Below, in pieces: positions 1 through 62,962 of a stretch of 64,000 nt of DNA. Below the pieces are notes generated by a model. That model was not told the DNA's origin. It saw only the letters and a program-made list of their open reading frames with translations, and did no database searches. The DNA lies in assembly GCA_905178155.1 (NCBI GenBank), contig CAJINV010000015.1, positions 1,604,538-1,668,537 on the forward strand, written 5' to 3'. A program made the position numbers and the translations under genes. Each line of letters opens with the position of its first letter. Positions within the stretch are counted from its first letter, which is position 1. This DNA is from Amoebophrya sp. A120 (Eukaryota; Protista; Dinoflagellata).

Positions 1-2364
1 GCACGACCCCAATCACTTCGAAATCTACAAGGGCCAGTATGAGAGTACACAACTCCCCCTCCCGCCCCTCATTTGTCATGCAGCACCCGACAACATCTAG
101 TCGCTGCCCTGTGGCACTGTTTCCATGACAAATTCCGGAAGCCCAAACAGTACTACATCAGGTATATCAATTTGTCATGCATATGCTCCACGTGTGCTGG
201 TGTTTGTATTGCTGTTCATGCCATACACATGAGGGGGACAGGGAGTTGTGCACTCTCATAGCCAGCCGCCGGGCTTGCCGCCCCCCTCCGGCGGCCCCCG
301 CCCGCAAACCGGCATGCACGCGGCCGGGGCGGTGGCAGGAGCTGGTGGAACCACTGCGGGCGGGCTTAAACCAGGCTTGCTCCCTGCGGGCATGTATCAA
401 CTGCAAAAATGTCTGGGTCTGGAAACTTGTAATGCTGCGTTGGGAATAGTGAATCAATGCTCTATAATGCGCAGGCAAGCATGAGAAATACAAATATCTG
501 CGCTTCTTTATGACAGGCAAAAGGGTCTGTTCTTGGACACGCATCACAAACTTTTTGGTCATGCCAGACAAGCATGACAAAATCTCAAATCTTCCAGACC
601 AAGACATTTTTGCATTTGATAGCATGGTCGCGGGACAACCGAATGATATCCGGAACGCGATCTCGGGCGCGGAGAAGGAACTGTCGACGAAGGTTTTGGC
701 CAGCATAATACCCGGCTTTGCCGGATCCACAGGGACTGCTGCAGGGACCAACGGGAAGACATTAAACGGGGGCGACCAGCAAGTGGCCCTAGACGAAGCG
801 GCACTGAATCCTCTGCTACTCGGGCAACAAATCCTGGTTAACGCAGCGGCGGTGGCGGCGACGAGTATAATAATGTGTTTTTGAGTGATCATCAACATCT
901 GTTTCTGTAGGAATGCTTGGTCAACATCCGCTCGTCTAGTTTGGGCTTAGGGTTTAGGGTCACCAGAAAAAGAATTTCAAATCACAAAGACACACATCAT
1001 CACCCCCACCAGGTACGGCCCAGTTGACCGGTGGGCACCTCGGGCTCGCGACCGCGCCCATGAAACTCACCGATTTGAACAACATCGACTGTGGCCAGCA
1101 GCGGTACGTTGGCATTGTGAAGTCGTTTGACAAGTTGAAGCAACTCGGCTACCTGCAGGCGGACGTTTTATCTAATCGCTTCATCGGTTACGACACCCCA
1201 CAGAAAATGGAAGTGGCGGTTATGAAAGAGGATTTCCAGCGGCTGAACCTGTACGCGGGCTGCATCGTTTCCTTCCAACTCGCGATATTCGCGCCGGACC
1301 ACAACGGCAGCTTCCGCGGCAAGGAAGAGCTGGAAGAAGCGGCGGCGGTTGGGAGTAGTGCTGGGTTGAAAAAACTGCCCTCGGTCATGGAGCTCGGCGG
1401 GGAGAAGAAACCAATCGTATAAATGAAGATGGATTCTCATTCTTTACTTACACGGCTTTTTTTTTTGATTTGGTGTCAAGCTCATGCACTGTATTTGAAC
1501 CGTTTGAAATTGTTGATGAGGTAAATCAATCACTACATTCGATTTCGAAAGACGTTGTGCAAGAAAAGCAGGAGTGCAAAATAGCATCAATTTCATCAAC
1601 CTCAACTTTTATTCCAGGCCGAACAAGTCGAGCTGGTCGACCCGATGTTGTTCGTCCCGGGCATGCCGAAGGTCGTAGCCAAGAAAAAAACGAAGAAGAA
1701 CCGGCAAGCCCTGGACGAACTGGAAAAAAACCTGCCAAACGCGATCGACTTGGCGCAGATTCTGAAAGACGTGGAAAACGTGGCGGAATTGGTTGAAAGC
1801 GAGCTCTTTGTCGTGGAAAAAGAAATTTTAACCCGGGACTTAAAGAACCTCGAGGAGCTGAAACGTGAAGAGCGAAGGTCGTTGAAGAGAATGAGGCGGG
1901 AACTGAAAGAAAAGGCGAGCAAAGATACAACTGGAGGCCGCGGCGGTGACAAGGACAAGAACAAAGGAGCTGCTGATGATGACGACAAGAGACGGAGTAG
2001 AAGCCGGTCCAGATCTAGGTCCAGATCCGACAGATCGAGGAGCAGTCGGAGTCGTAGCCGACGACGGCCGCGCAGTAAAGATCGACGGCGGAGGAACAAC
2101 AGTGGAAATAAACGAAGCGCCAGTCGCGACCGGCGCGGGGGTCCCCGGCCGCCAAGAAGAGACGGAACGAATTATTCGAGGAGTAGGAGTGCAAAACGAG
2201 ATGGGGATAGGAAGAACAGCAGGAGTAGAAGAGACCGCGACAACACGAGAGACCGGGGCGGGGGGAGAGGGAGAAGGGATAGTCGAGGCGGGGGTGGGAG
2301 CCGGAGGAGTCGAGGAAGAGGCAGGAGAAGGTCAAGGTCCAGATCGAAATCGAGAAGGAGGTAG
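1..2364 (+). CDS. 5'-partial cold-shock-domain-like protein with Arg/Ser-rich C-terminus (RNA-binding, SR-like)
   Basis: Spliced model: introners 38-260 and 395-621; GT-AG introns 865-1012 and 1417-1617. RYVGIVKSFDKLKQLGYL resembles the CSD N-terminal strands; RS-rich tail; stop at 2364. Confidence 0.65.
38..260. mobile_element. Introner family C (TIR TAT..GTGCACAACTCCCCC)
   Basis: TIR; TSD GCCAG. Confidence 0.85.
395..621. mobile_element. Introner family A (TIR TAT..TGCAAAAATGTCTGGGTCTGGAA)
   Basis: TIR; TSD GCATG. Confidence 0.9.
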
Positions 2365-2969
2365 GAACGAGAATTTGGCCTCGCTGTGAGGTAGAATCCT
2401 CGTCAATTGCTGCACCTGCTCCACATCATCGCTAATCGCAAGCTTGATGATTGAAACAAGGCCGTCAGTAACGTAAACGAGCGACATTGGTGTACCATAC
2501 TGTAGTCTTGTATTGCGAATGCACAAGCACAACGAAAAAATCATCACTCAACAAGCGCGGCGGCAATGAAGCGCACCACAACAATCTGAAAAACAGTGTT
2601 CGAACTTATGCGGGGGTGGAATTCAACAACAAGCAGAGAAGTTCGTGTACCAACGGAGAAGAAAGATCTACAACTGCACAAGGTCTACTTTTTCTGTTCC
2701 AGGATCGTTCACCAATCATGTGAAACAGGTTTAAGAAATAAAAGTGTTTCCGTGTCCAAAAAGCTTGTCAACAGTAAAAGCAGTTGTGTAGGTTCGACTG
2801 AAGTAGAAGCTGTACACCTCAGTTATGCTTTCTATGTGCCAACATTACAACTCCATCCAACAAGTATCTCGCCCCACAACAAAAAACAATCGATAGGTAT
2901 CGGCTCTGCTGTAGAAAAACAATTGTGGTCCTCCATATCTCTAACTCCAACTAAGCCTTGTGTTTGTCG

Positions 2970-5900
2970 ATGCTTTCAGTCAGTGCAAGTCGCAGAGCAT
3001 TGACTTCTGCTGGTGTTTTCTCTAGAAGTACTGTAGTGCGACAACCAGCAATACGATTGGTAAGGCAATTCTCCAAGAAAGATTCGTTATCCTTGCCTCG
3101 ATCATTTACGACAAATTTTTCCGCTAAAGTAAAAACTACACCGATTCATCGTAGAAACTACACGCTCAGCATTCCACCTCGTTATCACACATTATTAGCC
3201 TCACGATCCTTCCTTACCACTACCAGAGCCCCTGTTCTGACCAACAAGATGGCTCCCGCTGCACCCGAAGACGGCGCGGAAACCGCCGCTCTGCCGAGTT
3301 CTTTCACCGAGGAGGAAATGAAGGAGGATCCCTACCTCTACCTCGAAGAGGTGGAATCGGAAAAAGCGCTGAATTGGGTGATATGCATTGCAAATATGTT
3401 TGGGTCGGGAAGAATGCGTGTTCGTCATGCTTGTCTGGCATGATTCGAGAATCTGTGTTGCATAGACACGAAAAGGCCCTCTTACCTGTCATGCAAAAAC
3501 GAAGTTTGCCATGCGGAATACGTAAGTCATGGCAGCCAAAAAATTTGTCGTGCATAGCTGCGTATTGCAGTGCGTCTATCATTCACTTTTAGCATTACAA
3601 GTTTACAGACCCAGACATGTTTGCACTTGATAGGTGAAAGAGCAGAACAAAATCACTTTGGACAAGGTGGTTTCCATATCAAATGTAAAAATGTCTGGGT
3701 CTGGAAGAATGCAAGTTGTGATGCTGCATTTGGATTCCAAAAAAATCTGTATTGCATGAGCAGCAAAGGGAATGCAATTTTTTCTACGCGGAGAGGGAAT
3801 TTGTCATGCGGAATAGGCATCGCGAAGCCCTCAAAAAATCTGTGATGCTAGGGCATGCATCACAGACATCATGGCCAATGCAAAACATGCATGACAAGTC
3901 TCAGAATCTTCCAGACCCAGACATTTTTACATTTGATATTCCAAAACTGCTGCTGCTTCAAGCAACAAGTACACCAAAATCGTGATTGAGGACACGGAAG
4001 AATACAAGCGGTCCCTGCAGATCCTCGACTCCAAGGACAAAATAGCCCACGTGCGGAAAATTGGCTCGTATTACTACAACTTCTGGCGCGACGAGAAACA
4101 TGTGAAAGGGATCTGGCGGCGGACGAGTTTTTCTGAATACGGGGGCATATGGATTGCAAATATGTCTGGGTCTGGAAACTTGTGATGCTAAAATGTGCAT
4201 GATGAAAACACTTCCGAATGCAGTCCGGCACGACAACTTCCCAAAACGCTTTTTCATAGGCAATCCACATGAGAAACTGCGTTTTTGCATGACAAAAGAG
4301 GCTGCGACTTTTGTTAATTATGCAATACAGATTTTCTAGGTATGGAAAGCTAGCATTACAAGTTGCAACCTTCCAGACCCAGACATTTTTACAATCCATA
4401 GGGCAAGCAGGACCCGGAAAGCGTCGAGTGGGAAACGGTGCTGGATTTGGACGAGCTCAGCAAGAAGGAAGACAAGTCCTGGGTGTGGTCGGGGTACAGT
4501 TTGCTGCCGGAATTGGGGTTGATGGAACAAGATTCTGGTAGTACCACTGAAGTAGAGAATGCTGAGCAAAAACGTCCCCACCCCATAGTCAAGATGGAGA
4601 TTTTGCAACACAAACCTAGAAGTTTTGCGAGTCACGCATGACAAGTTGCAGGCTGTATTGTAGTGCAGTCTAGCAAGGATATCCGCATAACAAATCCATT
4701 TCCTCATCCTGTTTACAGCATTACAAGTTCCAAAACACGACAGAAAGTGCCTCACTTGGGGATGCGCATCACAAATGCCCCTGTACTTGCTAATCTGCAT
4801 GACAACTATAGAGTGGGGACGTTTTTGCTTAGGATATAGAGAAAAAAGACGTCATCGCGCTGCTCAAGCTCTCCCCCGGCGGGTCTGACGCGGTGGTTGT
4901 TCGGGAGTTTTCCCTGACAAAAAAGCAATTTTTGTCCGAAGACAAAACACGAGACAGCGCGTTCACGGTGGAAGAGAACAAAACGCAGATCTCCTACCTG
5001 GACCGCGACACGGTTTATCAACTGTAAAAATGTCTGGGTCTGGAAGAATACAACTTGTCATGCTAAATCTGAATGATGCAAAAATCTGTGTTGCGTGAGT
5101 ACCAAAAGCTGTCCACTGTTGACCAAGTTGAGAGGGAGTTTCTCATGCAGGAGAGGCATGATAGAGACCTCAGAGAATCTGTCATGCTAGGTCCTGCATT
5201 CCAGACCTCATGGGTCATGGAAAAGCTGCATGACAAGTCGCGCATTCTTCCAGACCCAGACATTTTTACACTTGATACGGTTTTTCTCGGCACGAAGTTT
5301 GAAAACGAGGAGTTCAACGGGCTAACCGACTCGTATAGCGTTCTCAACTGTTACATTCTCAACTGTTACATGGATTTGTGATGCAAGAATGGCAAAAGTC
5401 AAAGTAGGGAGGTTGCACCTGTAGCATTCCAAATTCCGCACAGATGTAGGTGCTGTTTAGCCTTTCCAAAATTTGTCATGCAGAGTAGCTTTATCTTGTG
5501 AATATTGATGTTTGTTTTGCATTACAAATCATGTAACAGTTGAGAATGTAACAGTTGAGAGCGCCATAACTCGGGATACCCCAGGATGGTGAAAATTTGG
5601 GCCCGGGGGAAAGAGAAAACGCAGTTAAAAACGATTTTCGACGGGAATAAACAGGATGTCGCGTCCGGCGGCCACGCGTATAGCTGGACACGGGTGGATG
5701 AGAAAACGCAGAAGAAAATCACGACCATCTACGATTCCATCGGCCAGTCGAAAACGTTTTACACCCGCGACCACTACATCAAAAATGGGTATTGGGAATT
5801 CGTCTACGACGAGAATAATTCTTCATCCAACGCAGATGTTACCCTTTCTTCCATCCGTAACACAGATTTGACCGATACATCTGTTTGCAAGAAATTCTAC

Positions 5901-8900
5901 CCGGACACGGAACCCGATAAGCTGATCCGATTGTCTGGCGTTCCCGACTCCGCGGACGTTTCTGTTTACCAGGACTACGCGGTGATTTCTCTGAGGAAAG
6001 ATTGGGGAGATAGTACAGACAAGGAAAACGCGGACTTCTTCTACCCGGGGGGATCGCTTCTTGTCGTACCGTTGAAAAAGTTGATCGATGTCGCCGGGGA
6101 GGTTTTGCCGACGTTCAAAGCGGACTCGCTTCCCGAAGTGACCGAGGAGAATGATTATTACAAAGAGAACTTTGTGAACAACGGGAAGACTTTACAGCTC
6201 CGGAAGATGTGCAAAATGCTGTTCAAGGGGGGAGTCGAGGGCGAAGCGCTGCAGGACACGTGCGAAACCAAGGACTACTTGATCATCCACAAGACCGTGA
6301 ATTTGAAGCCGGAGCTGGAATTTTGGAAGAAAGGAAATAATGACGGAACACCGAGCGGAGATTGGGTTTTGGACACCAGTGAAAAGACGAACTTTTTGAA
6401 GACCACAGGCGGAGCTGGGAAACATGACGCCGCGGACGAGAACATTTTTGAGTCGATTTCGCTCCGTTCGGTTGATTGGGACATGAGTTCGGATGATCTC
6501 TGGTTTACCTCCGAGTCCTTTTCCCGACCGGAACAGCTTTTTTACATTGACACCAAATCTACCACAACCTCCTATGGCGTTCTCAAACGTTACATTCTCA
6601 ACTGTTACATGGATTTGTAATGCAGGAACAGCAACAATCAAAGTGGCAAGACTGGAGCTTTCGCATTACAGACTTTCCACAGATTATCATGCTATTTAGC
6701 CCTTCGAAAATTTGTCATGCTAAGCACCTTGAGCAAGTGGAGGGCAATGGCAATTTTGCATGACAAATTCATGTAACAGTTGAGAATGTAACGTTTGAGA
6801 ACTCCATACCTCCACCGCGGAAAAGAAACTGTTGAAGTCCGCCCCGAAATTCTTCGACGACGATAAAGTCACGACGAGCCATATGGGAGTGTCAGAATCG
6901 AAATTGACAAAATCGGAAAACTTGTGATGCGCAAAATCGATGCCAGTTAGACCCACAGTTTGTAGTCGGCGCATGACAAATTCTCCTCGTCCTGGAAGCG
7001 AGTCTGTCATGCGGTTTAAGGCAAAAGAGCTGCCTTCTGTCATGCTAGTCAGCAGCCCAACACTTAACCCTTAAGTACCAGGACTACAATCCGCCTTCCT
7101 TGCATCCTCTGCAATAGAGTCGCTTTTTGCGTAGCATTTTGTGCATTACAGATCATTGCGATTTTGTCGATTTCGATCCTGACACTCCCATAAGCCAAAG
7201 ATGGGTCGTGTCGAAAGACGGCACCCGGGTGCCCTACTTTCTCGTCGGGAAAGACTTGACTAGTTCCTCCAAAAGCACCAAACCGCGCCCCACCTGTCTC
7301 TACGGCTATGGGGGGTTCGAGATATCCCTAACGCCCAGCTACATGGCGATCGCGGGTCAGCAGTGGATTGAGAAGGGAGGAATTTTTGCGCTGGCGAATA
7401 TCCGCGGTGGCGGGGAATTTGGGCCGCAGTGGCACCTATCCTCTGCAAAAGTATCGTACTCGTAGTAATTGTATGTAGTGAGGTCACCGAACGGTTCTAA
7501 CCGGGGAGTTTTTTTGCCACCTACCGTGAAAAACGACCGGCAGTTTTCAAGCGGCCGGAAGCGTTTTTTGACATAAAAGATTTTCAATTATCAAGCCTCC
7601 GGGGCTTTGAAGTCAAACAAGCCCGGTCGAAAACTATCGATTCGCACTGGATAAAACGACGCAGGGAAGCCGGCAAAAGGGGCGCCGTTCCGAGGCGCCC
7701 GCCGCCTTGGTTTCTGGCGATTTGGGGCGCCCAAAAAGGGGCGCGCAAAAAACGCGCCCAAAATCAGAACAGCGAAACAGCATGGCACGGCCGCGATTTC
7801 GGAGCATCTTGGGCGGCCGCGAAAGCGGCCGCCTTTTCGCCGGTTTTAGAGCCTGGGAAGCTTTGCAAAAAGCGCCGGCGTGAAAAATAAAAACGCGAAA
7901 AATAAAAAACGCCCCAGACGCGCAAACCCAATCCGCATGCTATGGGCCCGGTTTTTCTTCGCTTTTTGGGCGCCCCCCGTGGCACCCGGATCGGCCCCAT
8001 AGCATCGGGGCTGGCTTTCGGAAAGGAATTTGGGAAATGTGCCAAAATTTGTGATGTTTCCCAAGTGGCCGCCATACCGTGCGGCATAACGTTACTCACG
8101 GCGGTATGGCGAGCCCAGAAAAAACAAAGGCGTGGCCAAGGCGGCGGTCGGCAAAAAAACGCCCACGACCTCACTACCCCCGCCCCGGCGGCTATATTTG
8201 GTAAGTGCAGCCATGCATGACAAATGATCCAGCTTTCTACCCGAACACGCATGACAAATTCTTTTTCCGATAAATGTGTAATGCGATTTTCTCTTATCAT
8301 GATACTTTTGCAATGCATAGCACCAAGCCGCGTTGAAGGAAAACCGACCGAAGGCATACGAAGATTTCGAGGCGTGCGGAATGGACTTAATTTCCAGCGG
8401 AGTCACGACCAAGGAGATGCTCGGTACTTAGTTTCGTACGGCGCTCCGTTCCTGCTCGTGCAGTATCTCCTAGTTGTACACAGATCTCTTTTCATGTCAT
8501 GCAGTGTCAGCAACAGCATGGTAAGAAAAGCAAACAAATATGATGATGATGTCTTTCAGATGTATTACTCAATCGAACGGCCACCAACCCACCCCCAACG
8601 CCCTCACAGGTTGCATGGGCGGTTCCAACGGCGGGCTTTTAACCGGCAACATCTTCGTTCGCGGGGCCCAAAAACCCGAATTGATCTTCAGCGCCATTGT
8701 GTCCCAGTGCCCGCTACTCGACATGAAGCGGTTTCACAAACTCCTAGCCGGCGCGAGTTGGATGGCGGAGTACGGGAATCCGGACTTGGGCGAGTATGAG
8801 AAATTCATCAAAAATTTATGCACTGCAAAAGTATCGTAGTAGTATAAATCGCATGACAGATTTCCTCAGCATGAGAAATGGAATTTCTAATGCGCATCTG

Positions 8901-9866
8901 GCTCGAGAATGAAATTTGTAATGCATGAATGCGATTAGTACGAGTGCGATACTTTTGCACAGGATAAAACTACTCCCCGTACCAAATGATCGAAGCAATG
9001 GAAAAAGCAAAAACCCATTCCTATGCAAGAAAAAAACTGTGTGAGTGTAGGTGTCTTGGAGTTGTGACAGCATGACAAATTTGCTCTGCATGACAGAGAA
9101 AACCTGTCATGCAAACCGCAAAACAAACACATAACAAAAACAGGACTTCATGGCTGGCCAGGATGACAGGTGTATCTGTGTTGCATGCTTTGCATTGCAG
9201 ACTTGCAGCTACAGAGTTTTTTTCTTGGATAACTCCGCGATCCTCTTCACCACGTCCACCAAAGACGACCGCGTGCACCCGGGCCACGCGCGAAAGATGG
9301 TATCATTTGTAAAAACGTCCCCACCCCAGAGTTGTCATGCAACTGTGCAATGACAGCAACATTTGTAATGCGCAGCTCCATGAGAGGCATTTCCAATCGT
9401 GCTTTGGAATTTGTAATGCTGTACACAGGATGAGAAAGTGGCTTTCTAATGCGCCTTCCCTTGCCAACCAGCACTACATACACTGCAGAGGGAAGCTTGT
9501 CATGCACAGCTCCCAAAACTTGGTGACTTGTGTTGCTAGCTTTCCAACTTGACTATGGGGTGGGGACGTTTTTGCTTAGGATAGATGGTGAAACGGATCC
9601 AGGACATGCTGGAGCTCCCGAATGAAGGGGCCGCCGACATTGTCCGCTACTACGAAAACATCGAGGGCGGCCACGCGGGGGCGGCGGACAACAAGCAAAG
9701 AGCGTTCATGAAAACCCTGGAGTGGCTGTTTCTGTGGGAAAAACTTTCTGGCGGTCGTGGGGGAAAGGGCGGTAGTCGTAGTGTGTCGCCGTCGAAGAAG
9801 TCGCGCGGGTGCTGCGTGCCGGGGCCTAGTGACTCGTCTCCGCGGGAAGAAAACTCCTGCTTGTAA
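2970..9866 (+). CDS. Prolyl oligopeptidase (peptidase S9A), possible mitochondrial presequence
   Basis: After removing 12 introners and GT-AG intron 8424-8609: DPYLYLE, LSPGGSDAVVVREF, SGYPR, YGYGGF, NIRGGGEFG, GGSNGGLL (catalytic Ser), DDRVHPGH (Asp), EGGHAG (His). Confidence 0.95.
3382..3632. mobile_element. Introner family A
   Basis: TIR; TSD GGTGA. Confidence 0.9.
3677..3938. mobile_element. Introner family A
   Basis: TIR; TSD TTCCA; no GT/AG available at the junction. Confidence 0.9.
4148..4400. mobile_element. Introner family A
   Basis: TIR; TSD GGGCA. Confidence 0.9.
4558..4836. mobile_element. Introner family D (TIR ..AAAAACGTCCCCAC)
   Basis: TIR; TSD TAGAG; left end AA instead of TA. 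Confidence 0.85.
5016..5277. mobile_element. Introner family A
   Basis: TIR; TSD CGGTT. Confidence 0.9.
5334..5568. mobile_element. Introner family E (TIR ..CTCAACTGTTACATTCTCAACTGTTACA)
   Basis: TIR; TSD ACTCG. Confidence 0.9.
6573..6808. mobile_element. Introner family E
   Basis: TIR; TSD CCTCC. Confidence 0.9.
6882..7192. mobile_element. Introner family F (TIR TATGG..GTGTCAG..GAAAT.GACAAA)
   Basis: TIR; TSD AGCCA. Confidence 0.9.
7437..8319. mobile_element. Introner family B (TIR TAT..TGCAAAAGTATC) with nested insertion
   Basis: TIR; TSD GCACC; 883 bp. Confidence 0.85.
7475..8177. mobile_element. Nested MITE-like GC-rich insertion
   Basis: Inverted ends GTAGTGAGGTC / GACCTCACTAC; lacks the introner internal motif. 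Confidence 0.55.
8817..8966. mobile_element. Introner family B
   Basis: TIR; TSD AAATT/AAACT. Confidence 0.85.
9022..9231. mobile_element. Introner family H (TIR TAT..AAGAAAAAAACT)
   Basis: TIR; TSD ATTCC/ACTCC. Confidence 0.85.
9301..9583. mobile_element. Introner family D
   Basis: TIR; TSD GATGG. Confidence 0.9.
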
Positions 9867-29700: not shown

Positions 29701-29717
29701 GTGTTGTTGGCTTTTGA
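17725..29717 (+). CDS. Hypothetical coiled-coil plus transmembrane protein (paralog A)
   Basis: Continuous frame after excising 9 introners including 18265-26490 (…YETLLA|EQKAAAV…); 3' end uncertain (29717 or 29724). Confidence 0.65.
17801..18053. mobile_element. Introner family A
   Basis: TIR; TSD GTTTG. Confidence 0.9.
18620..23440. repeat. GC-rich tandem satellite, about 27 diverged units of about 180 bp
   Basis: Recurrent GGGCTTCGCGCGATAGCCGGAGAAGCAAGGAACAGAGCGGGGCAAGGCTGGCCAGC…TTTTCGGAAAAGCTGGCCAAACTTG. Confidence 0.95.
23900..25290. repeat. Degenerate minisatellite built on the palindrome GAATATTC
   Basis: Dozens of GCCGAATATTCAGGG / CTCGAATATTCAAGG units. Confidence 0.9.
25310..26330. 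repeat. 12-bp microsatellite blocks in inverted arrangement
   Basis: (GGCGAAACGACA)n-like at 25310-25520; (CGCCTGTCGTTT)n-like at 25795-25845 and 26200-26330. Confidence 0.85.
26546..26799. mobile_element. Introner family A
   Basis: TIR; TSD CGGAG/CGGAA. Confidence 0.85.
27091..27396. mobile_element. Introner family D
   Basis: TIR; TSD CAGGT/CCGGT. Confidence 0.85.
27622..27776. mobile_element. Introner family B
   Basis: TIR; TSD TTTAC. Confidence 0.9.
27905..28156. mobile_element. Introner family A
   Basis: TIR; TSD CAAAC. Confidence 0.9.
28250..28571. mobile_element. Introner family G
   Basis: TIR; TSD AGAAT. Confidence 0.9.
28918..29068. mobile_element. Introner family B
   Basis: TIR; TSD TTTCG/CTTCG. 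Confidence 0.85.
29347..29668. mobile_element. Introner family G
   Basis: TIR; TSD ACATC. Confidence 0.85.
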
Positions 29718-33900: not shown

Positions 33901-33959
33901 CGGTGGTCTTTTTAGAACGGTATGTCCAGGGGGAAAAAAATGTCGTGCGGCTCGTGTAG
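30924..33959 (+). CDS. Hypothetical coiled-coil plus transmembrane protein (paralog B)
   Basis: Continuous frame after excising 5 introners; collinear motif similarity to the gene at 17725. Confidence 0.7.
31530..31738. mobile_element. Introner family H
   Basis: TIR; TSD CGTAT. Confidence 0.85.
31885..32212. mobile_element. Introner family G
   Basis: TIR; TSD TCTAC. Confidence 0.9.
32228..32550. mobile_element. Introner family G
   Basis: TIR; TSD CGTGT; right end TG. Confidence 0.85.
32643..32817. mobile_element. Introner family B
   Basis: TIR; TSD TTGGT. Confidence 0.9.
33427..33734. mobile_element. Introner family F
   Basis: TIR; TSD GCGCA. Confidence 0.9.
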
Positions 33960-49455: not shown

Positions 49456-52400
49456 ATGGAGACAGCTTCGAAAGAGGACGGCAATACTAAAGCCGCAACT
49501 CTCGTCCACCCAGGCGACACCTCCGCCGGTCCGTCTTCCGGTATCAAAAAGTTGCAGTCTCTCCGCACCCGCGCCGCGCAGAATGTTGGCGTGTTGCAAA
49601 AGCTCTGGTCGACGACGGACGAAAACAAACAGGACAAGTTTCTCCGAAACGTCAATTTCGTCGAGAACGAAACGGTGTACAAAGTCTCCTTAGACTTGTG
49701 GCTGTCCGTCGAATACCCTGTACAAGAGCATCGTACTCGTACTAATCGCAGTCATGCAAGACAAATATCTATGCTCAAGCTAAATTAGCATGACAAATTC
49801 CGTTTGTCATGCTGAGCTAATTTGCATTGCAAAACTACGAGCGCGATACTTTTGCAGTTCATATCGAACGGTATGGCGAACCTGCGGTACGGATTGCCCT
49901 GGAAACGATGCTCGACCGAGATTGCCGCAATCTCGTGCTGAACAACGACTGGCCGACGTTGGATCGGGGCGATAGGTTTAGCCAGGTCGTGCAGATGAAG
50001 AAAAAAAAGTGCAAGGACAACTACTTGAACTTGAAGAGCAGTAGCATCGACCTGGAGAACGATTGGAAGCTGAAATTTGAAGAATTAGCGGACGAGATGG
50101 AGAAACTGAAGACCAAACACGCATATCAAATGCAAAAATGTCCGTGTCTGGAAGATTCTAAACTTGTGATGCTGTCTCTGGATTGGAAAAAAATTTGTAT
50201 TGCGTGACCAGTAAGAGGAGTAGATTTTGTGTTCCGCGGGGATGGCATTTGTCATGCGGAATAGGCAACATGAGGAAGCCGAAGCGCTCTAAAAATCTGT
50301 GATGCTAGGCCATACATTACAGGCATTATGCAAAATATGCATGACAAACACAAATCTTGCAATCTCCCAGACCCAGACATTTTTGCACTTGATGACGCAG
50401 ATCTGGAGAAAACGAAAAACTCGTTGCAGGAGCAGCTGTGGAAGGCGCAGGCGAAACTTTATCAAAAGGAAAAAAGCCCCCACCCCATACCAAAACGGAG
50501 ATTTGTGTAGCATGATTTGCTACCACAAATCACATTGTCATGCTGGAAGGCAAAAGATGCGGACTGTAGTGCTGGCTGGCGTGGGAAAGCCTTGCACTTT
50601 CAGCAAGAGAGGAGGCAACTGGAAGTGGAAAACAGCATGACAAACTGCCTGCAGTTCAGGCCACAGCTTCGTCTGCTCTTGGCATTCTAGCAATACAAGT
50701 CGACTTGTGTACGCAAATCCAGCATCACAAGTTTACTTTTCGATAGGGGGAGGGGGGATTCTTCTTTTTGATAGTTTGGAGGGGGACGGGGATGAAGTGC
50801 AGGCAAAGGAAAAGGAGCTGACCGGCCAGGTGGAGGAATTAGAGGCGGAATTGGCGAAAATGAGGGAGAGGGGTATAGGTCTGACACGGATTTTAAAAAT
50901 TTGAAATTTATCGTGCTCTCTTCGTGATATTCGATTGATTTTCGACTGCTTGTCATGCGCAACTACCATGTACATCAATATACAACGACCCTTCGTAGAT
51001 CGTTTATCAACACGGTCACACGCTCACGGACAGGAATCTGTGATACAGAATAAACAACACATCTTCTATAATCAGCTTCCGCCTTTGAGGATTCGAACGC
51101 CGCCGAAACCAACAATCTCCGCGACCACTTAGACGACCTAGAGCAGAAATACTCCGCGTTGCATATGACCTGCTCAAACGTTACAATCTCAAACGTTACA
51201 ATAGAGTCTGAGACTTGTCTTGCATCATCGACATGACAGACTCGGACAGCATTCCACTTTCTGCAATACAAATTTCTCCAGATTGTATTGCGGATTGGGA
51301 CTCCTACTCCAGAACTTGTCATGCGTAATCCTGTGGGAGTAGGGTAGATCATGCACTTCTTGCAACACAAATTCTAGATTCTATTGTAACGTTTGAAATT
51401 GTAACACCTGAGCAGGTTATATTGCAGCTCGAGCTCTCTACCAAAGACGCGAAGATTGAGGAGTATGCATTGCAAAAGTATCAGTATTTTCGTACTAGCA
51501 GTAATTGCATCACAAATTAGCTCAGCATTGGAAATGGAATTCGTCACATATTTCGTTCTTGGGATGGAGATTTGCATATCATGCATGATTGCGATTACTT
51601 TTACTACCAGTACGAGTGCGAAGATACTTTTGCATGGGATACGGAGCTTTCCATGGCGATTCTGAAACAGCAGGAGCTAATGGAGGAGGAGCAGCAGAAA
51701 TTCAAGGACCAGCTTATGGCTTGCTCAGGTGTTACATTCTCAACTGTTGCATGAGTTTGTAATGCAAGACCGGCAAGAGTGAAAGGAGGAAGATTGCGCC
51801 TTTTGCATTACAAGTTTGGCGCAGATTTAGATGCTGTCTAGTGCTTCCGAAATTTGTCATGCGAAGCAGCTCGATCATCTGCCGGCTTAAGGTGCTTTTG
51901 CATGACAAATCCATGTAACAGCTGAGAATGTAACGTTTGAGAACGCCATACAGCTCCAGGCAAACACGACGGCCAGTAGCAACGAAGAGGAAGAGGCACG
52001 GGTCAAGAAGCAGCAATCCGTGAATGAGGAGGAATTTCAAAAAAGGTTGGAGAGAGCTTTGAAGGACCAGGAACTGAATATGAAGAAGCAGCTGCAGGAA
52101 AACGCGACGGAGGTGGCGTCGGTGTCGAAACAGCTGATGGAAAACATCAAGGACTTAGAAAAAACGCTGAAAGATTTGGAACTTGAAAACGAGGAAGTGA
52201 AGAACGAAAACAATATCGAATGCAAATATGTTTGAGTCTGAAAGGTGGATGTAAGGTTTGTCATGCTTGTCTGGCATGACTGGAGACTTTGTCATACGTG
52301 TCCAAAAAGAGACCCTTTTGCTTGTCATGCAAAACGCACTTTGTCATGCCTGCGGAAAGCGCAACAATAAGCCGCGCGAATATTTCTCATGCTTGCCTGT

Positions 52401-55400
52401 GCATTACAGAGAATTCACTACTCACAACTCAGCATTACAAGTTTCCAGACCCTCCAGACGTATTTGTATTTGATAAACAAATCTCTGAAGCAAAAACTGC
52501 AAGCGGAGAAAAAAGCCTCGGATTCCAAAATCATCGAGCTGGAACAGTTGAATCACCAATTGGAAACCTCCCTTGGCTATCAAATGCACATTTGTTTGGG
52601 TGGTCTGCATGATTGCATGCGTTTGTCATGCATCTTTTGGAGGAGCACGCAGATACTGTGGATGTGGAATGCGCACGCTAGCATTACAATTTTTGTTCAG
52701 GTCTCCGTCTCGTGATGCCTGTCGCGCATGAGAAACTCAAACTGACTACTTGTGTACGCCAAAAGTGGATAAGTTTTTGTGCTCATGCTGATCATGCAAC
52801 ACAAATTTTTGTGTGATCGGAGATTTTCATTTTCATGACAAGTTCCAATCTTTCCAGACCTAGACAGAGAGACATATTTGCAATGCATATTGGGGAGCTA
52901 CGAATTCGGCTGCAGGAGCTGGCGAAGAAGATTTCCGAGGCGGAGGGCCAGGGCGTGGACGATCTGAAGGACGTTTTAGAGACCTCTGGACTGTATGCAT
53001 TGCAAATATGTCTGGGTCTGGAAGGATCCAAACTTCTCATGCTGTCTTTGGATTCTAAAAAAATCTGTATTGCATGACCAACAAGAGGAGCCCAGATTGT
53101 GCTACGCGGAGAAGGCATTTGTCATGCCGAGTAGGCATCAGAAAGCCTTCCAAAAATCTGTGATGCTAAGTCATGCGCTACAGGCGCGATGGGTCACTCA
53201 AAATGTGCATGACAAACCCGGCAATCTTCCAGACCTAGACATGATATTTGCATTTGATAGGCTGCAGAAATTCCTCTCCGACTGCTCGAACAGTGGGAAA
53301 TCCATCCGAAAAATCCACGAGAGGCTGTACCAGGATTTCTTTAACCGGGCGATGCGGTTGCAGAAATTGATTGCGGAGTACAATTTGATGCGGGAAGTGG
53401 ATTTGACAAAGAAGATGGAAAATAACCAGATGGACAAACTATTCCCTCCGGCGAACAACGCTTTGGGCGTATACCCGAATGCGACGCCGACGAACAGCTC
53501 GGTGGTGCAAATCACCATGAGCGGCGATTTGGTCAAGAACGCCGCGCATCAGCACAAGGGCACGGATAATCATAGAGGGTTGACAAGTCCAACCTCTGTG
53601 GCAGCTTCGGGCACGTTGAGCAGCACAGGAAACTACAACAGCAACCAGAAGCCGCATTTGAGCATTCACACGAACCTCCACGCGGGTGGCCTGATCGAAG
53701 TCAGCAATAACGCACACACCGTCTCCCAAGCGATACAGCCGGCAATGAACCTCCCCGGCATGAACGGCAACACAATTTTGAAAAACCGCATGCGGGCCCG
53801 GTCGGCGAACTCTAAGCGGACCACGACCTCATTAGACCCGAGTCAAGTCCTCGTCGGCACACCGCAGCAGCTAAACCAGGTGCACATCGTCAGAATGCAG
53901 CCACACGACAATAAAGTTCAACCCATGCAGAAGAACGCGAACGTATTTGATTCGTCCTGGCTGATCGCGCCCAGTCCGACCAGTGTCGCGTTTAATACAC
54001 TGAATTTGCAGTTCACAGTATTGTGAAGAAAAATCTCGCCCCCTCCCCATATCGAAAAGGAAATTTGTGATGCTGATTTGTGGCCACAAAGACAAATTAG
54101 GTTTGTCTTGCGTACAAGGCAAACGGCAACCATGTGGCGCATTGTACAGCCAGTCTGTCGTGCGTTCTCGCCTATGTCAGGCTTGTTTCTCATGCTCAGC
54201 TGCTTCTAGCCGGATGCGTACCTCCCAATCCCAAACGGGCTTAGAATTATATGCCGACAAGCTCTCGCAATACAAGCAAGGCTCATTTGTGTACACATAT
54301 CCAGCAACACAAATTGTCTTTTGTGTATTGGGTGGGGGCTTTTTTCACTTTGATACACGGGAACCAGTCCAAACGGCAGTCCAACCAGCACGACAAACCG
54401 GAGCAGCACCCTGCAGAAGATGCAATTGTCGAATTCCAAGCAAAGGGTGATGGCGCAGACAGTTATGGAGGAGGAGCGGCAGATGAAAATTGACCAGGGC
54501 CGCGCTGCCGGGAGCTTCGTAGCAGGAGCAGGAGGAACAACCACGGCTTCCAGTAGATCACCGCCACCGAGGATCCCAAATCAGGGGTTAGTAGCTGCGG
54601 TCGAATCTTCTGACCCGCGAGCGGCGGCCGTAGTCGGAGAGGTGATCGGAGAGCAAGGGTCGGCTTTGCAGCAGCAACTGGAGCAAAGGAAGCTGCGTGC
54701 GCAGTCGGAGATGAGGCCTCCTGCTGTTTCTTCTAGTGCAAGTGCAACACAAGCAAATGTTGAAAACAATAACAACTCCTACCAACATATCAACTGCAAA
54801 AGTGTCTGGGTCTGGAAGAATGCAGAAGTTTGTCATGCACATTTTCCATGACCCATAAGGTCTGTGATGCATGTCCTAGCATCAGAGATTCTGCGACGGC
54901 TTTCTGATGCTCATACCGCATGAGAAACGCCCTCTCCGCGTAGCACAAATTGCGCCTCTTATGCTGTTCATGCAATACAGATTTTATGTAGAGTCCAAAG
55001 GTAGCATCACAACTTCCAACTTTCCAGACCCAGACACTTTTGCATTTGATACAACAAGACGCTTCCTACCGCACACCTTCCCCCGCGAAGCCAGCCGTTT
55101 GGGAATTCCGCCCGAATTTGCTCCAAGGCAGCTCTTCTACGAAAAATAGAGCAGATAACAACCACCTTGGGCTCTCGTTGAGCGACCAGATTAGCCAAAG
55201 TCTTTTCACCGGCGCGGCAAGCAGCTCTTCATCGCCGAGGGGTAGGACTTTGTTACGGGGTTCGGCTTACAGTATGCAGGGGATCATCCCGACCGGAATT
55301 TCGGCGAACGGACAGATTAAACGAACGCTGATGTCGACCAGCTTGACGAATGGAATTGGGAACAACGGAGTAGGTTCAACACCTGTGATCAACCTACAAC

Positions 55401-58400
55401 TAGATCCGGACGCTAAGTCAGTGGTTTCCGGTGTCGTGTCGTCCTCTTTGTCGTCCGGTAATATAGGTCATCTGGATCAGCTATGACAGTGCACAACTCC
55501 CCCTCCCCCTCATTTGTCATGCAAAATACCCATTGCAACCTTTGTGTTTGTCTCTTGGCACTGTTTGCATGACAAGTTCTGGTAGCCCAAATAGCACTAC
55601 ACTCCAGTGCAAACTTGTGATGCAAAACCGGCACTCTCACTGATGCTTGTATTGCCATTCATGCTATACAAATGAGGGGGAGGGGGAGTTGTGCACTGTC
55701 ATATCAACACCTTCCGCATTCAAAACTGAACCGCCCCTCGCCGCCCCCAGCTGCGGCGCTTTTCAAGAAAGGATCATTGACGGAAATCATCGAAAATCAG
55801 AATGCTTTGCAGAAAAGCGCACGAGCCAGGTCACTGAGCCCGACGATTAGTGGGGTGACGTCTGTGACGAGCGGCACAACTGCAACTGGAACAGCTGGAG
55901 CGGAAATGTTAAACAAAAACACGACCACAACTGGCAACCAGCTCTCCACTCAGCAACTTCAGCTGCCGATTCACCAAACACCGAAAGCACCAGCGAAGAA
56001 GCTGTCCGAAATTTTGCTCGAGAAAAACTGGACTCCCGGAGTGGGTGTCGCAGCAACTGGAAATAACGGTGGAGAGAAGACTTCTACCGGAACAGCAAAT
56101 GCAAATGGAACATCATCTACCACTTCAACCGGAGCTGGTAATCCCAGCAATGTGAAACAAGTCGTCGCGTCGAGTTCTTCCACGACGGCGCAAAACCTGA
56201 TCCGACTTCAAAACAGCACAGGTTCCGGCTCCTCTGCGGAAGAGGAAGAGAAACTCAACGAGTTACCGATGGGACTGAAATTCGGATCGGAATTCGCGAA
56301 GAAATCGTCCGTATCAATTGCAAATATGTCTGGGTCTGGAAGGTGGCAACTTGTCATGGTAAATCTGAAGCATGCAAAAATCTGTGTTGCGTGAGTGCCA
56401 AAAGCTGTCCACTTTTGTTTTTGACCAAGATGGAGGAAGGGAGTTTTTCATGCAGGATAGGCAAGGCAGTGGCAGAGACCTCGCAGAGTCTGTCATGCTA
56501 AGTTCCGCATTCCAGACCTCATGGGTCATGGAAAATCTGCATGGTATCTGGAAAATCTGCATGACAAGCTTAGTTACACTTTTCCAGACCCAGACATTTT
56601 TGCACTTGATAGTCCGCAATCCACTTGTATAGTCAGCACTGGCGGTATCGCCAGAAAAAACTGTTTCACTGTAAACTTGTAATGCAGAAATTGCATCTCA
56701 CAAGTGTTTGTCTTGCTACACATGCAAGACAGTGGATTTTTAGCTGTGTTTTCCCTTAGGAACCTTGCATGGCAAATTTTCTCTGTCATGCAGAACAAAC
56801 TTGTGATGCAAAACCTGCAAAATCCTTACAGTGAAACACTTTTTTCGTACGATAGGCGGGGACGGGAGAAAGTTTTGAAGAACCACTACAACAGTACTAG
56901 TGGTTCTGCGAATCATTCCCATTCCTGTTCCAACAATAATTCTATCAAATGCAAAAATGTCTGGGTCTGGAAACTTGTGATGCTGGGCGGCGTCTCATGA
57001 GGAGACCACAAGTGCTGGCTCAGCATGACAAGTTTGTGACCTTCTAGGTGTTGCCTATTCTGCATGACAAACTGCGTCTCTGCATGACAGAAAAATGGAG
57101 CTCTTGGGTAACGTGCATGACAGATATAAGAGTCATGCCAGACAAGCATGACAAACATCCACTCTTCCAGACCCAGACATTTTTGCATTTGATAAATTCC
57201 GTCCAGGAACCAAACACTCCCTCGATGGAAAACAACTCGCTCATTTCCCATATGCCATTCTCAAACGTTACATTCTCAACGGTTACATATTTTGTCATGC
57301 AAAATGCCTATAAAGCCGCCAGACCATCGAGCTGCTTCGCACGACAAAAAATTCTCGCTCGAAGGGCTAAACAGCATCTGAATCTGTGCCAAATTTGTGA
57401 TGCGAGACTTGCAAGCTCGCCCCTTTCCCTATTGCTTTTTTTGCATGACAAGTCTCTCGGTAGAGATCGCTTTGCCCGTGCTTATTCCACTCAGAGTTTG
57501 CTGGGTAGGTGGCTACCGTTTTAAGTTTATAAACGAATGGGACGCCCTGCCCTTAGCCTTCCAACATGACAAATCCTTGTTGTAGCAGTTGAGAATGTAA
57601 CGCTTGAGAATACCATATCCCATTCGATGAAAACCACCTCCCACTCTTTAGCCCCTTCCTTCGTCGCCCAGCCCAACAGCAAGGGGAATGTGGTGCAGTT
57701 CGGCACGCACATTTCCTTCTACCAACGAAGCGTGTCCGAGGATAGGTCCTTGACCAGCAGTGTGTCGGATAATTACCCAGATTCGATGCTGAACTCCCCC
57801 ATGTCCAGCATGTTCCGACGCAGCTTGTCACCGGGGACGAGGTTTTTTGCAACAAATTCTCTGGTTTCCCCCTACGCGCGGCAGAGCAGGAATTTAGGGA
57901 AGGGCACAGCTAGTAATATGCGGAATCAACAGCGGATGTTTCTCTTGCGGCCGGTGAAGCAAGAATTGATATTGGATGAGAACAGCACTAGTTGTGCGGG
58001 TCTTGTCTCGTCTGGGGGTGCAGGAGGTGCGGGAAGTACTAGTGGTGCAAGTGGTCTTCATGCTGTCGTGAACAACGCTATGCCCACGTCGGTACACAGT
58101 GCGCAGGTTGAGAAAATGAAAAACCAGCAACGGGAGTCGAGTGTGGGAAATAGTGGTGGTGCCGTGCGGGATCAGAGTGTTCCTGGGAAGAATCATCTTG
58201 GAACAAATGCGAATGCGAACAAATCCAGATCTCCCTCTCCGGATAACAAACAGAAATTTGTTTTACGCCCGAACGGAGTAGTCCTCTTCCCGACGACACA
58301 AAACAACAGCTCAGGAGAGCAGGGAGTTCTTCCGTTAGAAGGGATGTCAGCGCCAACGTCTGTGATGCAGGGTGCGAAAGTGATCGTGCCACCGGTGAAT

Positions 58401-59414
58401 TTGCCGCAAGTTGTGAACATCAATGCGTCGTCGTCTACTGCGTCGCTGACCAAAGTGGATCTCGGACTGCCACCGGTGATCAACGAGTATCAGATGCAAA
58501 AATGTCTGGGTCTGGGAGATTGCAAGCTTTGCCATGCATATTTTGCATGATCCATAATGCCTGTAATGCACGGCCCTAGAATCACAGATTTTTAGAGCGC
58601 TTCCGCATGGTGCCTATTCCGCATGACAAATGCGATCTCCGCGGAGCACAAAATCTATTCCTCTTACAACTGGTCACGCAATGGAAATTTTTTTCGAATC
58701 CAGAGACAGCATCACAAGTTTTGAATCTTCCAGACCCAGACATATTTGCAGTTGATAATGAGCAAGAGGATTCCATTTCCCAAGCGGAATCGTTTCTAAT
58801 GCTGCGATATGCATTGCAAAAGTATCGTACTAGTAGTAATCGCAATACAAATTAGCGCAGCATGACAAATGCAATTTGCCATGCTGATTCGGCTTGGTAA
58901 GGCGATTTGTCTTGCATGATTGAGATTAGTACGAGTACGATTCTTTTGCAATGCATATGCGATCGAGTATTTTGCCGCCGCCAAAGACGAATCCGAACAG
59001 GAGTAAGAACATATGCACTGCAAAAGTATCGTAGTCGTAGTAATTGCATTCATGCATTACAATTTTTTTTCCTAAGGTAAACCCGCATTAGAAATTTTAT
59101 TTCTCATGCTGAGGAAATTTGTATTGCAATTACTACTAGTACGATACTTTTGCAGTTCATAGAACAGTTGGACAAACAAAAATGCAGCGGTGAACAACCA
59201 CGCGACTAGTGGGGTGTCGTTTCTGAAGAGTAACATTAACAGCGCGGCGGGAGCGACGTCGTCCAAAGTAGATAATCGTCCTCCAGCGGCCGCAGTTATG
59301 AGCAGCATAGCGGCGAATAATGCAAACAACAAAATTGCTGTGCCAAAGTTAATCAATTTGGAGCCCTTTGGAGGCGGAGCCAGTTCTGGTGCCGGTGCGG
59401 GCGGTGCTGCGTAG
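49456..59414 (+). CDS. Large hypothetical protein: N-terminal coiled coil, low-complexity S/T/N/G-rich C-terminus
   Basis: Exons join after removing 19 introners and GT-AG intron 50873-51132; heptad-rich E/K/L segments; not every junction was translated by hand. Confidence 0.7.
49714..49863. mobile_element. Introner family B
   Basis: TIR; TSD TCGAA. Confidence 0.85.
50124..50394. mobile_element. Introner family A
   Basis: TIR; TSD ACGCA; right end TG. Confidence 0.85.
50460..50773. mobile_element. Introner family G
   Basis: TIR; TSD not recognisable (AACTT vs GTTTG). Confidence 0.75.
51164..51421. mobile_element. Introner family E
   Basis: TIR; TSD TTGCA. Confidence 0.85.
51464..51641. 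mobile_element. Introner family B
   Basis: TIR; TSD AGGAG/CGGAG. Confidence 0.85.
51715..51950. mobile_element. Introner family E
   Basis: TIR; TSD CAGCT. Confidence 0.9.
52214..52475. mobile_element. Introner family A
   Basis: TIR; TSD AACAA. Confidence 0.85.
52578..52889. mobile_element. Introner family A
   Basis: TIR; TSD TTGGC/TTGGG. Confidence 0.85.
52994..53259. mobile_element. Introner family A
   Basis: TIR; TSD GACTG/GGCTG. Confidence 0.85.
54019..54355. mobile_element. Introner family G
   Basis: TIR; TSD CACAG/CACGG. Confidence 0.85.
54788..55051. mobile_element. Introner family A
   Basis: TIR; TSD CAACA. Confidence 0.9.
55482..55703. mobile_element. Introner family C
   Basis: TIR; TSD TCAGC/TCAAC. 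Confidence 0.85.
56312..56611. mobile_element. Introner family A
   Basis: TIR; TSD GTCCG. Confidence 0.9.
56646..56854. mobile_element. Introner family H-like
   Basis: TIR; TSD GGCGG. Confidence 0.85.
56943..57194. mobile_element. Introner family A
   Basis: TSD AATTC; reverse-complement relative of 27905-28156. Confidence 0.9.
57251..57617. mobile_element. Introner family E
   Basis: TIR; TSD TCCCA. Confidence 0.85.
58488..58757. mobile_element. Introner family A
   Basis: TIR; TSD ACGAG/ATGAG. Confidence 0.85.
58808..58957. mobile_element. Introner family B
   Basis: TIR; TSD TGCGA. Confidence 0.9.
59012..59161. mobile_element. Introner family B
   Basis: TIR; TSD GAACA. Confidence 0.9.
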
Positions 59415-61060: not shown

Positions 61061-62962
61061 ATGTTGTCCCTCACCGAGCTGAATTCCGGACTCCAGTTCT
61101 GGATGGACAGTTGCGAGCACAAGAATCACTGGGGCTGGCTTGTCTTCCACTACGCCATACTCGTGGGCGCGTCGCAACCAAGTCCGATCTGCGTGGTGTT
61201 AGCCGCGGTGATATGCGGCATCTCCGATGAGCAGTGGAAGACCTACGCGTTTGACTATTTTCATTTAGACGACAAGGACTTCGGGGTGCCCATGCTCTAC
61301 TGTGTCTGGGTGCCGTTGATGGTGGCCGTGACGTACTGGATAAACGGGGGCTTTCTGCTCGCGTTGGACTGGTCCAGGCCAGAGGTACAAATACTTCTGT
61401 GGTGTGATTGAATACGTTTACCACTTTATTTCTTCAGTTTGTCATGCGCAGGGACATTTTTTATTCCCTCTGCTGATGACAGTTCCGCATGGCAAATCTA
61501 CATCAAAAAATTCCATCAGGTTCTCCAGGGGTTTCGCCTCCAAGCGTCCAACAAGTTGACGAAGGAAAAAATCCGCAAGTTGGTCCGGAATATCGCGATA
61601 AACATCTTCCTCGTGCTGCCCTTCATCGGGTTCCTCTTTCTAGTCCTCCAGCTGAAAACGCCATTAGGCTTGAAGCTCGAGCTATGGAAAGAAAAAAGTT
61701 TGTCACAGTCACTAACTTGCAGGTTTTGCATTACAAATTTTTTTAGCAGCACAGTTTTTCCTTGTATTGCAGAAACACTAGGGTAATCCCCTATGAAGCT
61801 TGGCTGTCATGCATTTTTACGCATGACAGCCAATTTTGTATTGCAAAAATGCGCATGAGTGATCGTGACGCTCTTTTTCTGTTTGATACGAGCCAACACT
61901 CCCGAGCTACATGAGCAGAGCCGTGCACACGTTTATCTCCGTGTTCTTCGTCAACGAGGTGCTGTTTTTCTACGGGCACTGGCTCTTTCACGCGAACAAG
62001 TGGCTTTACAAAAGTATTCTTGGCAGATTTTTTTTTCTTGTTTCCATCAAGTTCTATCTAAATCTAACTTCTTGGTTCTATTTCCTTTTCGTTTTCAGCA
62101 TGAGAAATTCACTTTGTTTTGCAAGAATGGCATGACAAATCAAACCACAGACATCCACAAGATCCACCACGAGTTCACCGCCCCGAACGCTTTCGCCGCG
62201 ATCTACTGCCACCCGATAGAACTTACGCAGTGCAAAAGTATCGTACTCGTACTGAAACTGATTGCGTTTGTGCATTACAGATCTTTTTCTCAATGCAAAT
62301 CCGCATTACAAATTCAATCTGTAATGCTAAGTCAATTTGTAATGCAATTTATACTTATTAGTACGATGCTTTTGCAATGCATAGAACTCATCGTCTCCGA
62401 CTTCATCCCCCTTGGGGTGGGCCCGCTGCTTCTCAACTCTCACGTCTACGTCTTCCTCTGTTGGGCGTTGTTCGCCGTGCTCGGAACGCAGACCCACCAC
62501 AGCGGGTTCAAGTGGCCGTGGGCGAAAGGGTGGGACCATCAGCCCGAGTTTCATGATCTACACCATGCGAAATTTAACGGAAACTACGGGAACATCGGGT
62601 TTTTGGACTGGCTGCACGGAACTACACTGCACTTGCCAGTAATACCGAAGACGGTGAAGGAGCCGGTAGACAATGCAGCTACGGGTTCTACATCTACTCC
62701 GGATGCAAGTACAATAGAAGGTGCTGCAGCTTCTATATCATCATCACCAACAGCGACAACAGGTCCTTCAACAACAGCCGCAAACACCGCGGAAGCTGCT
62801 GCAACATCAGCGAGAAGTAGAATAAAGCTCACAGAAATGACGATGAAGGATAGGAGTGGGGCAATGACCACGACGTCAGGCGCCGGGAGTAGAAGTTCGA
62901 GCATCAGCACAACCACGCCGGAAGATGGGATTAAAAGTTCAGCGACGGCTGCGGTGAAGTAG
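61061..62962 (+). CDS. Fatty acid hydroxylase / sterol desaturase family protein (FAXDC2-like)
   Basis: His boxes HWLFH, HKIHH, THH, HDLHH; NYG..GFLDWLHGT. Introns 61385-61520 and 62013-62149 (GT-AG) plus 2 introners. Frame is open upstream to about 60836, so the start is uncertain. Confidence 0.9.
61683..61888. mobile_element. Introner family H-like
   Basis: TIR; TSD CGAGC. Confidence 0.85.
62224..62383. mobile_element. Introner family B
   Basis: TIR; TSD GAACT. Confidence 0.9.

Follow-up and report, generated by a model that had tools for sequence, protein, structure and literature searches.

Introns that lack GT-AG ends and carry inverted repeats are already described from the dinoflagellate Amoebophrya sp. 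A120, the text of Farhat et al. 2021 (PMC7789003) giving inverted repeats of the form TAT, seven variable bases and AAA, and direct repeats of 3-5 nt, for the non-canonical introns of that genome. Here we deal with 66 elements of this kind in a 64,000-nucleotide stretch of Amoebophrya DNA (the window; contig CAJINV010000015.1, positions 1,604,538 to 1,668,537), each with terminal inverted repeats (TIRs) and set between two copies of a 5-bp target site duplication (TSD), and with the register at which they appear to be cut from RNA; coordinates are counted from the first letter of the window and all features lie on its + strand. Two spliced genes of the window are identical to deposited A120 proteins (P0001 at 621/621 residues and P0006 at 568/568), and since this is the A120 genome and the elements have the TAT-N7-AAA motif and the direct repeats, they are the published introner elements. 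A sequence-only reading of the window had linked them to Amoebophrya introners and the link turns out closer than it claimed, such that the intron class and its removal were already published for A120 and the finding as first written is a rediscovery. Common to both descriptions are the inverted-repeat ends, border repeats, many families, a length of about 250 nt, the lack of GT-AG and the support from RNA (PMC7789003). In contrast to the splice sites of that text, which are variable relative to the hairpin and without clear signature, the elements here fit one register and an N-U-A-Y donor, although Figs 3 and S19-S23 of Farhat et al. and their wording "four nucleotides upstream" could partly anticipate the register. 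There too 83 of 89 spliceosomal proteins are reported as present with U1 not detected, and adaptation of the spliceosome in Amoebophrya has been suggested in print, in text that gives no register. The literature text searched resolves no mechanism and holds no fixed register, donor likeness or 8.2-kb member, although figures may show them.

The TIR introners of Aureococcus, Polarella and others are likewise DNA-transposon-derived introns, and in the text of Gozashti et al. 2025 (PMC12130899) diverse TIR introners are also given for A120, one family having an integrase-like open reading frame (ORF). As that text has it, they mostly carry or co-opt GT/GC-AG ends, unlike the elements here; no autonomous element, transposase or integrase was found within the window. 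Closer in their ends are the introns of Fritillaria borealis derived from miniature inverted-repeat transposable elements (MITEs; PMC13326754, PMC11282704), being TIR- and TSD-bearing, non-GT-AG and placed beside residual GT-AG introns, and for these a modified U2 spliceosome is reported to carry out removal (Soo et al. 2026, PMC13326754). However the ends preferred in Fritillaria are AG-AC and AG-AT and its U1 is conserved, whereas in A120 the +1 base and the last four bases are free and U1 is undetected. The nonconventional introns of euglenids, as reviewed in PMC11282704, resemble the elements in TIR pairing that joins the ends, in TSD-like repeats and in lengths up to kilobases, and differ in a base-class junction consensus, CAG/CTG in the stem and circular release, the A120 junction bases being random and the stem starting UAU. 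No full-length circular form of an element is among the RNA joints listed here. Looked for across the 66 elements, the euglenid terminal stem is predicted in 60 of 65, and neither the purine/pyrimidine consensus nor CAG/CTG is found; the GT/GC...AG ends of canonical U2 introns are also lacking at the inferred register.

Architecture and families of the elements

A strict search of the window for TA...TA ends, an exact 5-bp flanking repeat and no more than 3 mismatches per 12-nt TIR gave 37 matches, against a mean of 0.8 (maximum 2) across 30 dinucleotide shuffles. Relaxing the search gave 57, and removal of one internal sub-hit at 5367 and addition of 10 from hand-paired left-over termini brings the total to 66. 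Classes by terminus word reproduce exactly the eight families and the hand counts of the sequence-only reading (A 26, B 12, G 7, E 5, H 5, D 4, F 4 and C 3), one family F element matching the F word at a single end only, and clustering by sequence yields groups of 26, 11, 4, 4, 4, 4, 3, 2 and 2 with 6 singletons. At the 5' end the elements read TAT in 61 cases, TAC in 4 and AAT in 1, and at the 3' end ATA in 63, ATG in 2 and GTA in 1; the TAT-N7-AAA motif is complete at 48/66 left and 47/66 right ends, TIRs being present in all 66 by construction. The TSD copies are exact in 48/66, differ at one position in 17/66 and at four in one (50460), their sequence is random and the left copies are all distinct (66/66). 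Of the 17 single TSD mismatches 10 are synonymous, a share that does not point to constraint on both copies once exonic silent changes are allowed for. At 50460-50773 the flanks agree at 1 of 5 TSD positions, yet the frame is kept when the element plus 5 nt is removed.

With a median length of 261 bp the elements take up 39% of the window, or 31% if the largest is left out, and family A stands 11 times in one orientation and 15 in the other. All 66 lie inside + strand coding models, approximate ones, which cover about 58% of the non-element sequence; counting elements inside ORFs of at least 100 aa is a weak test, wrong offsets also scoring 50-56/66. TIRs, a fixed-length TSD and no detected coding capacity are the traits of MITEs and other non-autonomous TIR transposons, and to judge by these features the elements would be non-autonomous TIR transposon copies sitting in coding exons. 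That the families recur through the genome is supported by the clusters and by the summed depth in run X1, which reaches about 2e5 on element bins as against 42-50 on unique bins and is not a copy number. A word of type TGTCATGC/GCATGACA, a pattern picked by eye, occurs at 13.6 per kb in the elements below 2 kb (64/65 of them, all families) versus 0.36 per kb elsewhere, with matches outside those elements at 8495, 46624, 50951, 61440, 62098 and 62130 among others; several of the outside matches fall within GT-AG introns, some known and some likely, that could represent decayed introners.

Removal from RNA

Reads were placed on positions 1-16,500, a region holding 25 of the 66 elements, run X10 being raw RNA and run X4 taken as RNA by guess, a guess backed by its exon-joined contigs. 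Here 21 of the 25 are missing from RNA as the element plus 5 nt, 6 by direct joints and 15 by contig-length sum only, which supports the precise removal at non-GT-AG ends that had been proposed. The X10 joints cover 13890..16173, the last six elements of a gene of about 830 aa, and skip exactly the element plus 5 (287, 269, 262, 164, 258 and 317 nt), read support per joint being 729-1,048 at 113-152 start points; the identical six are found in X4 contigs. RNA mapping had been named beforehand as the check, with retention of the elements or use of cryptic GT-AG sites counting against TSD junctions, and among the joints listed 6/6 fall at the TSD, minor alternative joints being possible.

The sums extend this further upstream. 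An X4 contig of 3,382 nt covers 2901-10143, and the length removed from it equals 12 times the element plus 5 and the 186-nt GT-AG intron of the prolyl oligopeptidase (POP) gene. For 18 elements the sums agree (1572 = 1572, 2289 = 2103 + 186 and 1641 = 1641), 15 of these being without a listed direct joint, though such sums could conceal compensating offsets; the third sum supports the elements at 12640, 12942 and 13591, and the element at 4558, which starts AAT rather than TAT, is among those removed by this measure. Removal rebuilds the POP junctions TDS|GYPR and QWH|QAALKE just as first read, in colinearity with the orthologue from A25. Beyond 16,500 the deposited proteins P0001 and P0006 back the removal of 14 further elements, and for the other 27 the evidence is the restored reading frame; frame tests cannot separate removal of the element plus 5 from plus 2 or plus 8, and the 5 comes from the RNA and the proteins. 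Run X11 contributes 378 reads, most running on into unlike sequence, with 1-2 reads at two joints. At 7530-7590, 11448 and 13938-13978 parts of elements are also matched by RNA reads that derive from other loci and continue into unlike sequence, and element sequence thus occurs in transcripts elsewhere, whether as retained, untranslated or excised RNA.

The inferred register of the cut and the donor

An element whose TSD copies differ serves as a marker of register, the retained base showing which copy survives. Two markers are read from RNA, at 14258..14531 (TSD position 2, left base kept, joint 14259>14529 with 966 reads) and 14985..15153 (position 4, left base kept, joint 14988>15153 with 1,048 reads). 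The deposited proteins provide three more: P0001 keeps the left base at position 3 of 45711-45973 and the right base at position 5 of 46008-46228, and P0006 keeps the right base at position 5 of 26546-26799, where K rather than R was predicted beforehand and K is what P0006 carries. Spliced Sec1 equals P0001 at 621/621 for registers 3-4 only, and the spliced 568-aa gene matches P0006 in full (568/568) with any of registers 0-4, whereas register 5 fails at the position-5 mismatch of 26546; register 4 is the sole common register compatible with all five mismatched TSDs. We infer from this that the cuts fall 1 nt before the TAT of the TIR and 4 nt after its ATA, the mRNA keeping left TSD positions 1-4 and right position 5, and that the intron would be N + TAT...ATA + NNNN. 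The TSD repeats exon sequence, and because of this the offset cut restores the gene exactly. The first description of the product, as element plus one TSD, is therefore right in its length and apparently wrong in its borders, one whole TSD not being what leaves.

At this register the donor is NTAY in 65/66, the +1 base and the last four bases are random, and A at -7, T at -6 and A at -5 are nearly fixed because they are part of the TIR (A at -7 in 65/66, within the TIR). That the TSDs are arbitrary and most junctions cannot be GT-AG holds over any of the six TSD registers, GT-AG being possible in 1/66, GC-AG in 2/66 and AT-AC in 4/66. Another register offers a GC-AG pair at 14990 that would give a different product, but the RNA keeps the left base at TSD position 4 and so this pair is not used.

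Ordinary GT-AG introns coexist with the elements, as had been noticed. They lie at 1417..1617 (donor GTAT, from an X4 contig; no hairpin, z +1.1), at 8424..8609 (GTAC, from the contig-length sum and A25 colinearity) and, by best fit to P0001, at 45051-45264 (GTAC), 46557-46714 (GTAT) and 47114-47328 (GTAT) in Sec1. All five verified donors are GTAT or GTAC and none of these introns folds as a hairpin (z -1.2 to +1.1). The element donor N-U-A-Y resembles them at U+2, A+3 and Y+4. Of the non-canonical pairs listed in Table S4 of Farhat et al. 2021 (PMC7789003), those from A120 carry T at +2 in 9/9 cases and those from A25 begin TT in 9/9, the A25 TIRs beginning TTA, and it would seem that U+2 A+3 recurs in A120 and A25 despite differing TIRs and differing offsets from the helix end.

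How the elements may be removed

We put it at a little better than even that the elements are cut at a fixed register by a relaxed form of the resident U2-type spliceosome and not by a separate enzyme. The spliceosome is favoured because the cut tracks the donor-like U-A-Y, because the spliceosomal proteins are mostly present and because Fritillaria and Entamoeba offer precedents, the non-GT-AG introns of Fritillaria being handled by a conserved U2 spliceosome and E. invadens being described with a branch point fixed at -8 and so with a fixed branch-to-acceptor distance. A mobilising enzyme (transposase or integrase) would insert the element with a 5-bp stagger, and its symmetrical TIR would supply identical signals in both orientations. 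Pairing of the TIRs would then draw the element ends together, with the donor recognised via U+2, A+3 and Y+4, G+1 being dispensable, and the acceptor set by how far it lies from the stem base or the A at -7 and not by AG. In a more far-reaching form, to which we give somewhat less than an even chance, a spliceosome needing neither G+1 nor a 3' AG would read U-A-Y at +2 to +4 and place the 3' cut by a ruler 4 nt past the hairpin base, and any TIR transposon starting TAY would be a perfect intron in either orientation and up to 8 kb.

Several points weigh against this account. Of the five register markers, three are taken from deposited gene models that were themselves built on this genome and not from reads, and the direct-joint reads belong to one library and one gene. 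T at +2 arises by chance in one of six registers, so that the donor likeness alone is modest, and the likeness is drawn from five canonical introns. A branch-like YTNAY around A-7 is seen in 28/66 only; G+1 (18/66) and terminal AG (5/66) are at chance level and GT-AG at the inferred register is 0/66. For the donor bases themselves, pairing within the terminal stem is predicted in 50-55 of 65, and a spliceosome would need to open that stem.

The sequence-only reading had argued for a second, structure-guided pathway beside the spliceosome, and the strong stems do fit it, while the inferred U+2 A+3 Y+4 donor is at least equally compatible with a single relaxed spliceosome. Such a pathway, in which a hairpin-binding endonuclease and a ligase would measure from the stem base, is the alternative that survives best, though we hold it to be unlikely. 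The element ends show no preference for G+1 or AG, the GC-AG available at 14990 is ignored, and the predicted stem closing the ends in 60/65, with a median folding z of about -7 (8 shuffles each, and partly circular since the elements were chosen by TIR), stands against z of -1.2 to +1.1 for the GT-AG introns. The shared word TGTCATGC/GCATGACA could be a protein site, and euglenid introns, according to the review text (PMC11282704), are released as circles without lariats. However the two cuts lie at unequal distances from the stem (1 and 4 nt) and seem to follow the U-A word in A120 and A25 and not the helix end. The TSDs are moreover direct repeats, so that a bulge-helix-bulge, the substrate of tRNA endonuclease, cannot form, and no such enzyme is known here, a genome search for one not having been made.

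Well behind, and in our estimate improbable, is excision from DNA in some life stage, as for the internal eliminated sequences (IESs) of ciliates, with the RNA copied from a cleaned template. The elements would suit this in being TA-bounded, transposon-derived, precisely removed and within coding exons (66/66 as against about 58% coding, by the approximate models). Run X1, which is DNA-like in its flat 42-50x depth on unique sequence, nevertheless keeps them, its contigs passing without any difference from exon into element ends and 0 contigs being found at all six RNA joints, albeit in a single DNA-like run, with some joints uncounted and with contigs that drop rare forms. The TA ends are also removed here, unlike ciliate IES excision, which leaves one TA behind.

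That the joints are skips by reverse transcriptase across the hairpin between the direct repeats, the true RNA keeping the elements, has hardly any likelihood: the RNA data are all cDNA, and a strong hairpin with a short direct repeat is the classic setting for template switching, but 42/66 inserts would shift the frame if retained (hand count), POP and Sec1 are colinear with their orthologues only after removal, and within mismatched TSDs the crossover has a single position. Use of nearby cryptic GT-AG pairs by the ordinary spliceosome is as remote, for although some in-frame GT..AG pair lies within 30 nt of both ends in 61/66 elements, the joints listed are 6/6 at the TSD and the deposited proteins match per residue across 14 junctions.

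A fixed register specifies which nucleotides have to be joined in a lariat branch or at a circle junction, and mismatched TSDs become a free genome-wide marker of cut position. Should the spliceosome work without G+1 and AG, the known limits of its chemistry would be widened beyond Fritillaria and the filling of exons by transposons at little cost would be explained. The register, the donor likeness and the 8.2-kb member together sharpen the question of removal and make the mechanism directly testable.

The 8.2-kb element

The largest element, 18265..26490 (8,226 bp), has family B ends and an exact 5-bp TSD. Its interior is mostly tandem arrays with periods of about 174, 44 and 12-13 bp, the 12-13-bp units lying in inverted blocks, and a Pfam search of 5 long frames inside it and an Rfam search of 1-26,300 gave no match. 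The whole of it is missing from the deposited protein P0006, and its size is far above the 40-1,000 bp given as analysed in the text of Farhat et al. 2021 (PMC7789003).

Host genes

That the hosts are conserved genes is true of POP, Sec1 and a hydroxylase, but no Pfam match was obtained for the host of the 8.2-kb element. The POP gene (3249..9866; 918 aa spliced) has 12 elements and one GT-AG intron of 186 nt. Its first six elements are at 3382-3632, 3677-3938 and 4148-4400 (all A), 4558-4836 (D, starting AAT), 5016-5277 (A) and 5334-5568 (E), and the remainder at 6573-6808 (E), 6882-7192 (F), 7437-8319 (B, 883 bp), 8817-8966 (B), 9022-9231 (H) and 9301-9583 (D). The spliced product is identical to the A25 orthologue P0004, which has Peptidase_S9 and S9_N, at 506/918 residues; a Pfam search with two POP exons alone gave no match, and no A120 POP protein was present among candidates of 581-2,000 aa.

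The gene of about 830 aa (10925..16334), WD40-like by eye only, has 11 elements. Those at 11273-11534 and 11979-12235 (both A) are outside the RNA-supported set, and are followed by 12640-12907 (A), 12942-13264 (G) and 13591-13807 (C), and by the six with direct RNA joints at 13890-14171 (D), 14263-14526 and 14622-14878 (A), 14990-15148 (B), 15545-15797 (A) and 15862-16173 (F).

The gene for the 568-aa protein (17725..29717, on the basis of P0006) has 9 elements: 17801-18053 (A), the 18265-26490 element (B), 26546-26799 (A), 27091-27396 (D), 27622-27776 (B), 27905-28156 (A), 28250-28571 (G), 28918-29068 (B) and 29347-29668 (G). A Pfam scan of this protein gave no match. The next gene, 30921..33916, becomes a single open frame of 564 aa once its 5 elements are removed, at 31530-31738 (H), 31885-32212 and 32228-32550 (both G, the second with TAC...ATG ends), 32643-32817 (B) and 33427-33734 (F). 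The Sec1-family gene (44226..48030; 621 aa, Pfam Sec1, protein P0001) combines its three GT-AG introns with 5 elements, at 44311-44572 (A), 45334-45654 (F), 45711-45973 (A), 46008-46228 (H) and 47394-47653 (A).

Elsewhere the evidence is that of reading frames. A partial frame at the window start (38..621), read from sequence only, holds 38-260 (C) and 395-621 (A). A long coiled-coil and low-complexity gene (49456..59414) has 19 elements, whose removal opens one frame of 244 aa across 3 junctions and another of 1,409 aa across 16; they start at 49714, 50124, 50460, 51164, 51464, 51715, 52214, 52578, 52994, 54019, 54788, 55482, 56312, 56646, 56943, 57251, 58488, 58808 and 59012. Frames are also restored in the fatty-acid hydroxylase/sterol desaturase gene (61683..62383) on removal of 61683-61888 (H) and 62224-62383 (B), its last exon matching Pfam FA_hydroxylase, and in the first exon of a kinase-like gene on removal of a family A element (35881..36156).

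Beyond that element, 36516-37614 is probably a GT-AG intron of 1.1 kb, and the inverted repeat inside it (36864-36977 / 37015-37128) resembles none of the eight families. The 3.4-kb exon 37616-41025, whose kinase match is weak (Pfam E 5e-5, under the cut-off), has no element where about 10 would be expected. Neighbouring elements can be separated by micro-exons of about 10-30 nt, as at 32212-32228, 12907-12942 and 56611-56646. Every host gene model found is + stranded, which agrees with the unidirectional gene clusters mentioned in the abstract of Farhat et al. 2021 (PMC7789003).

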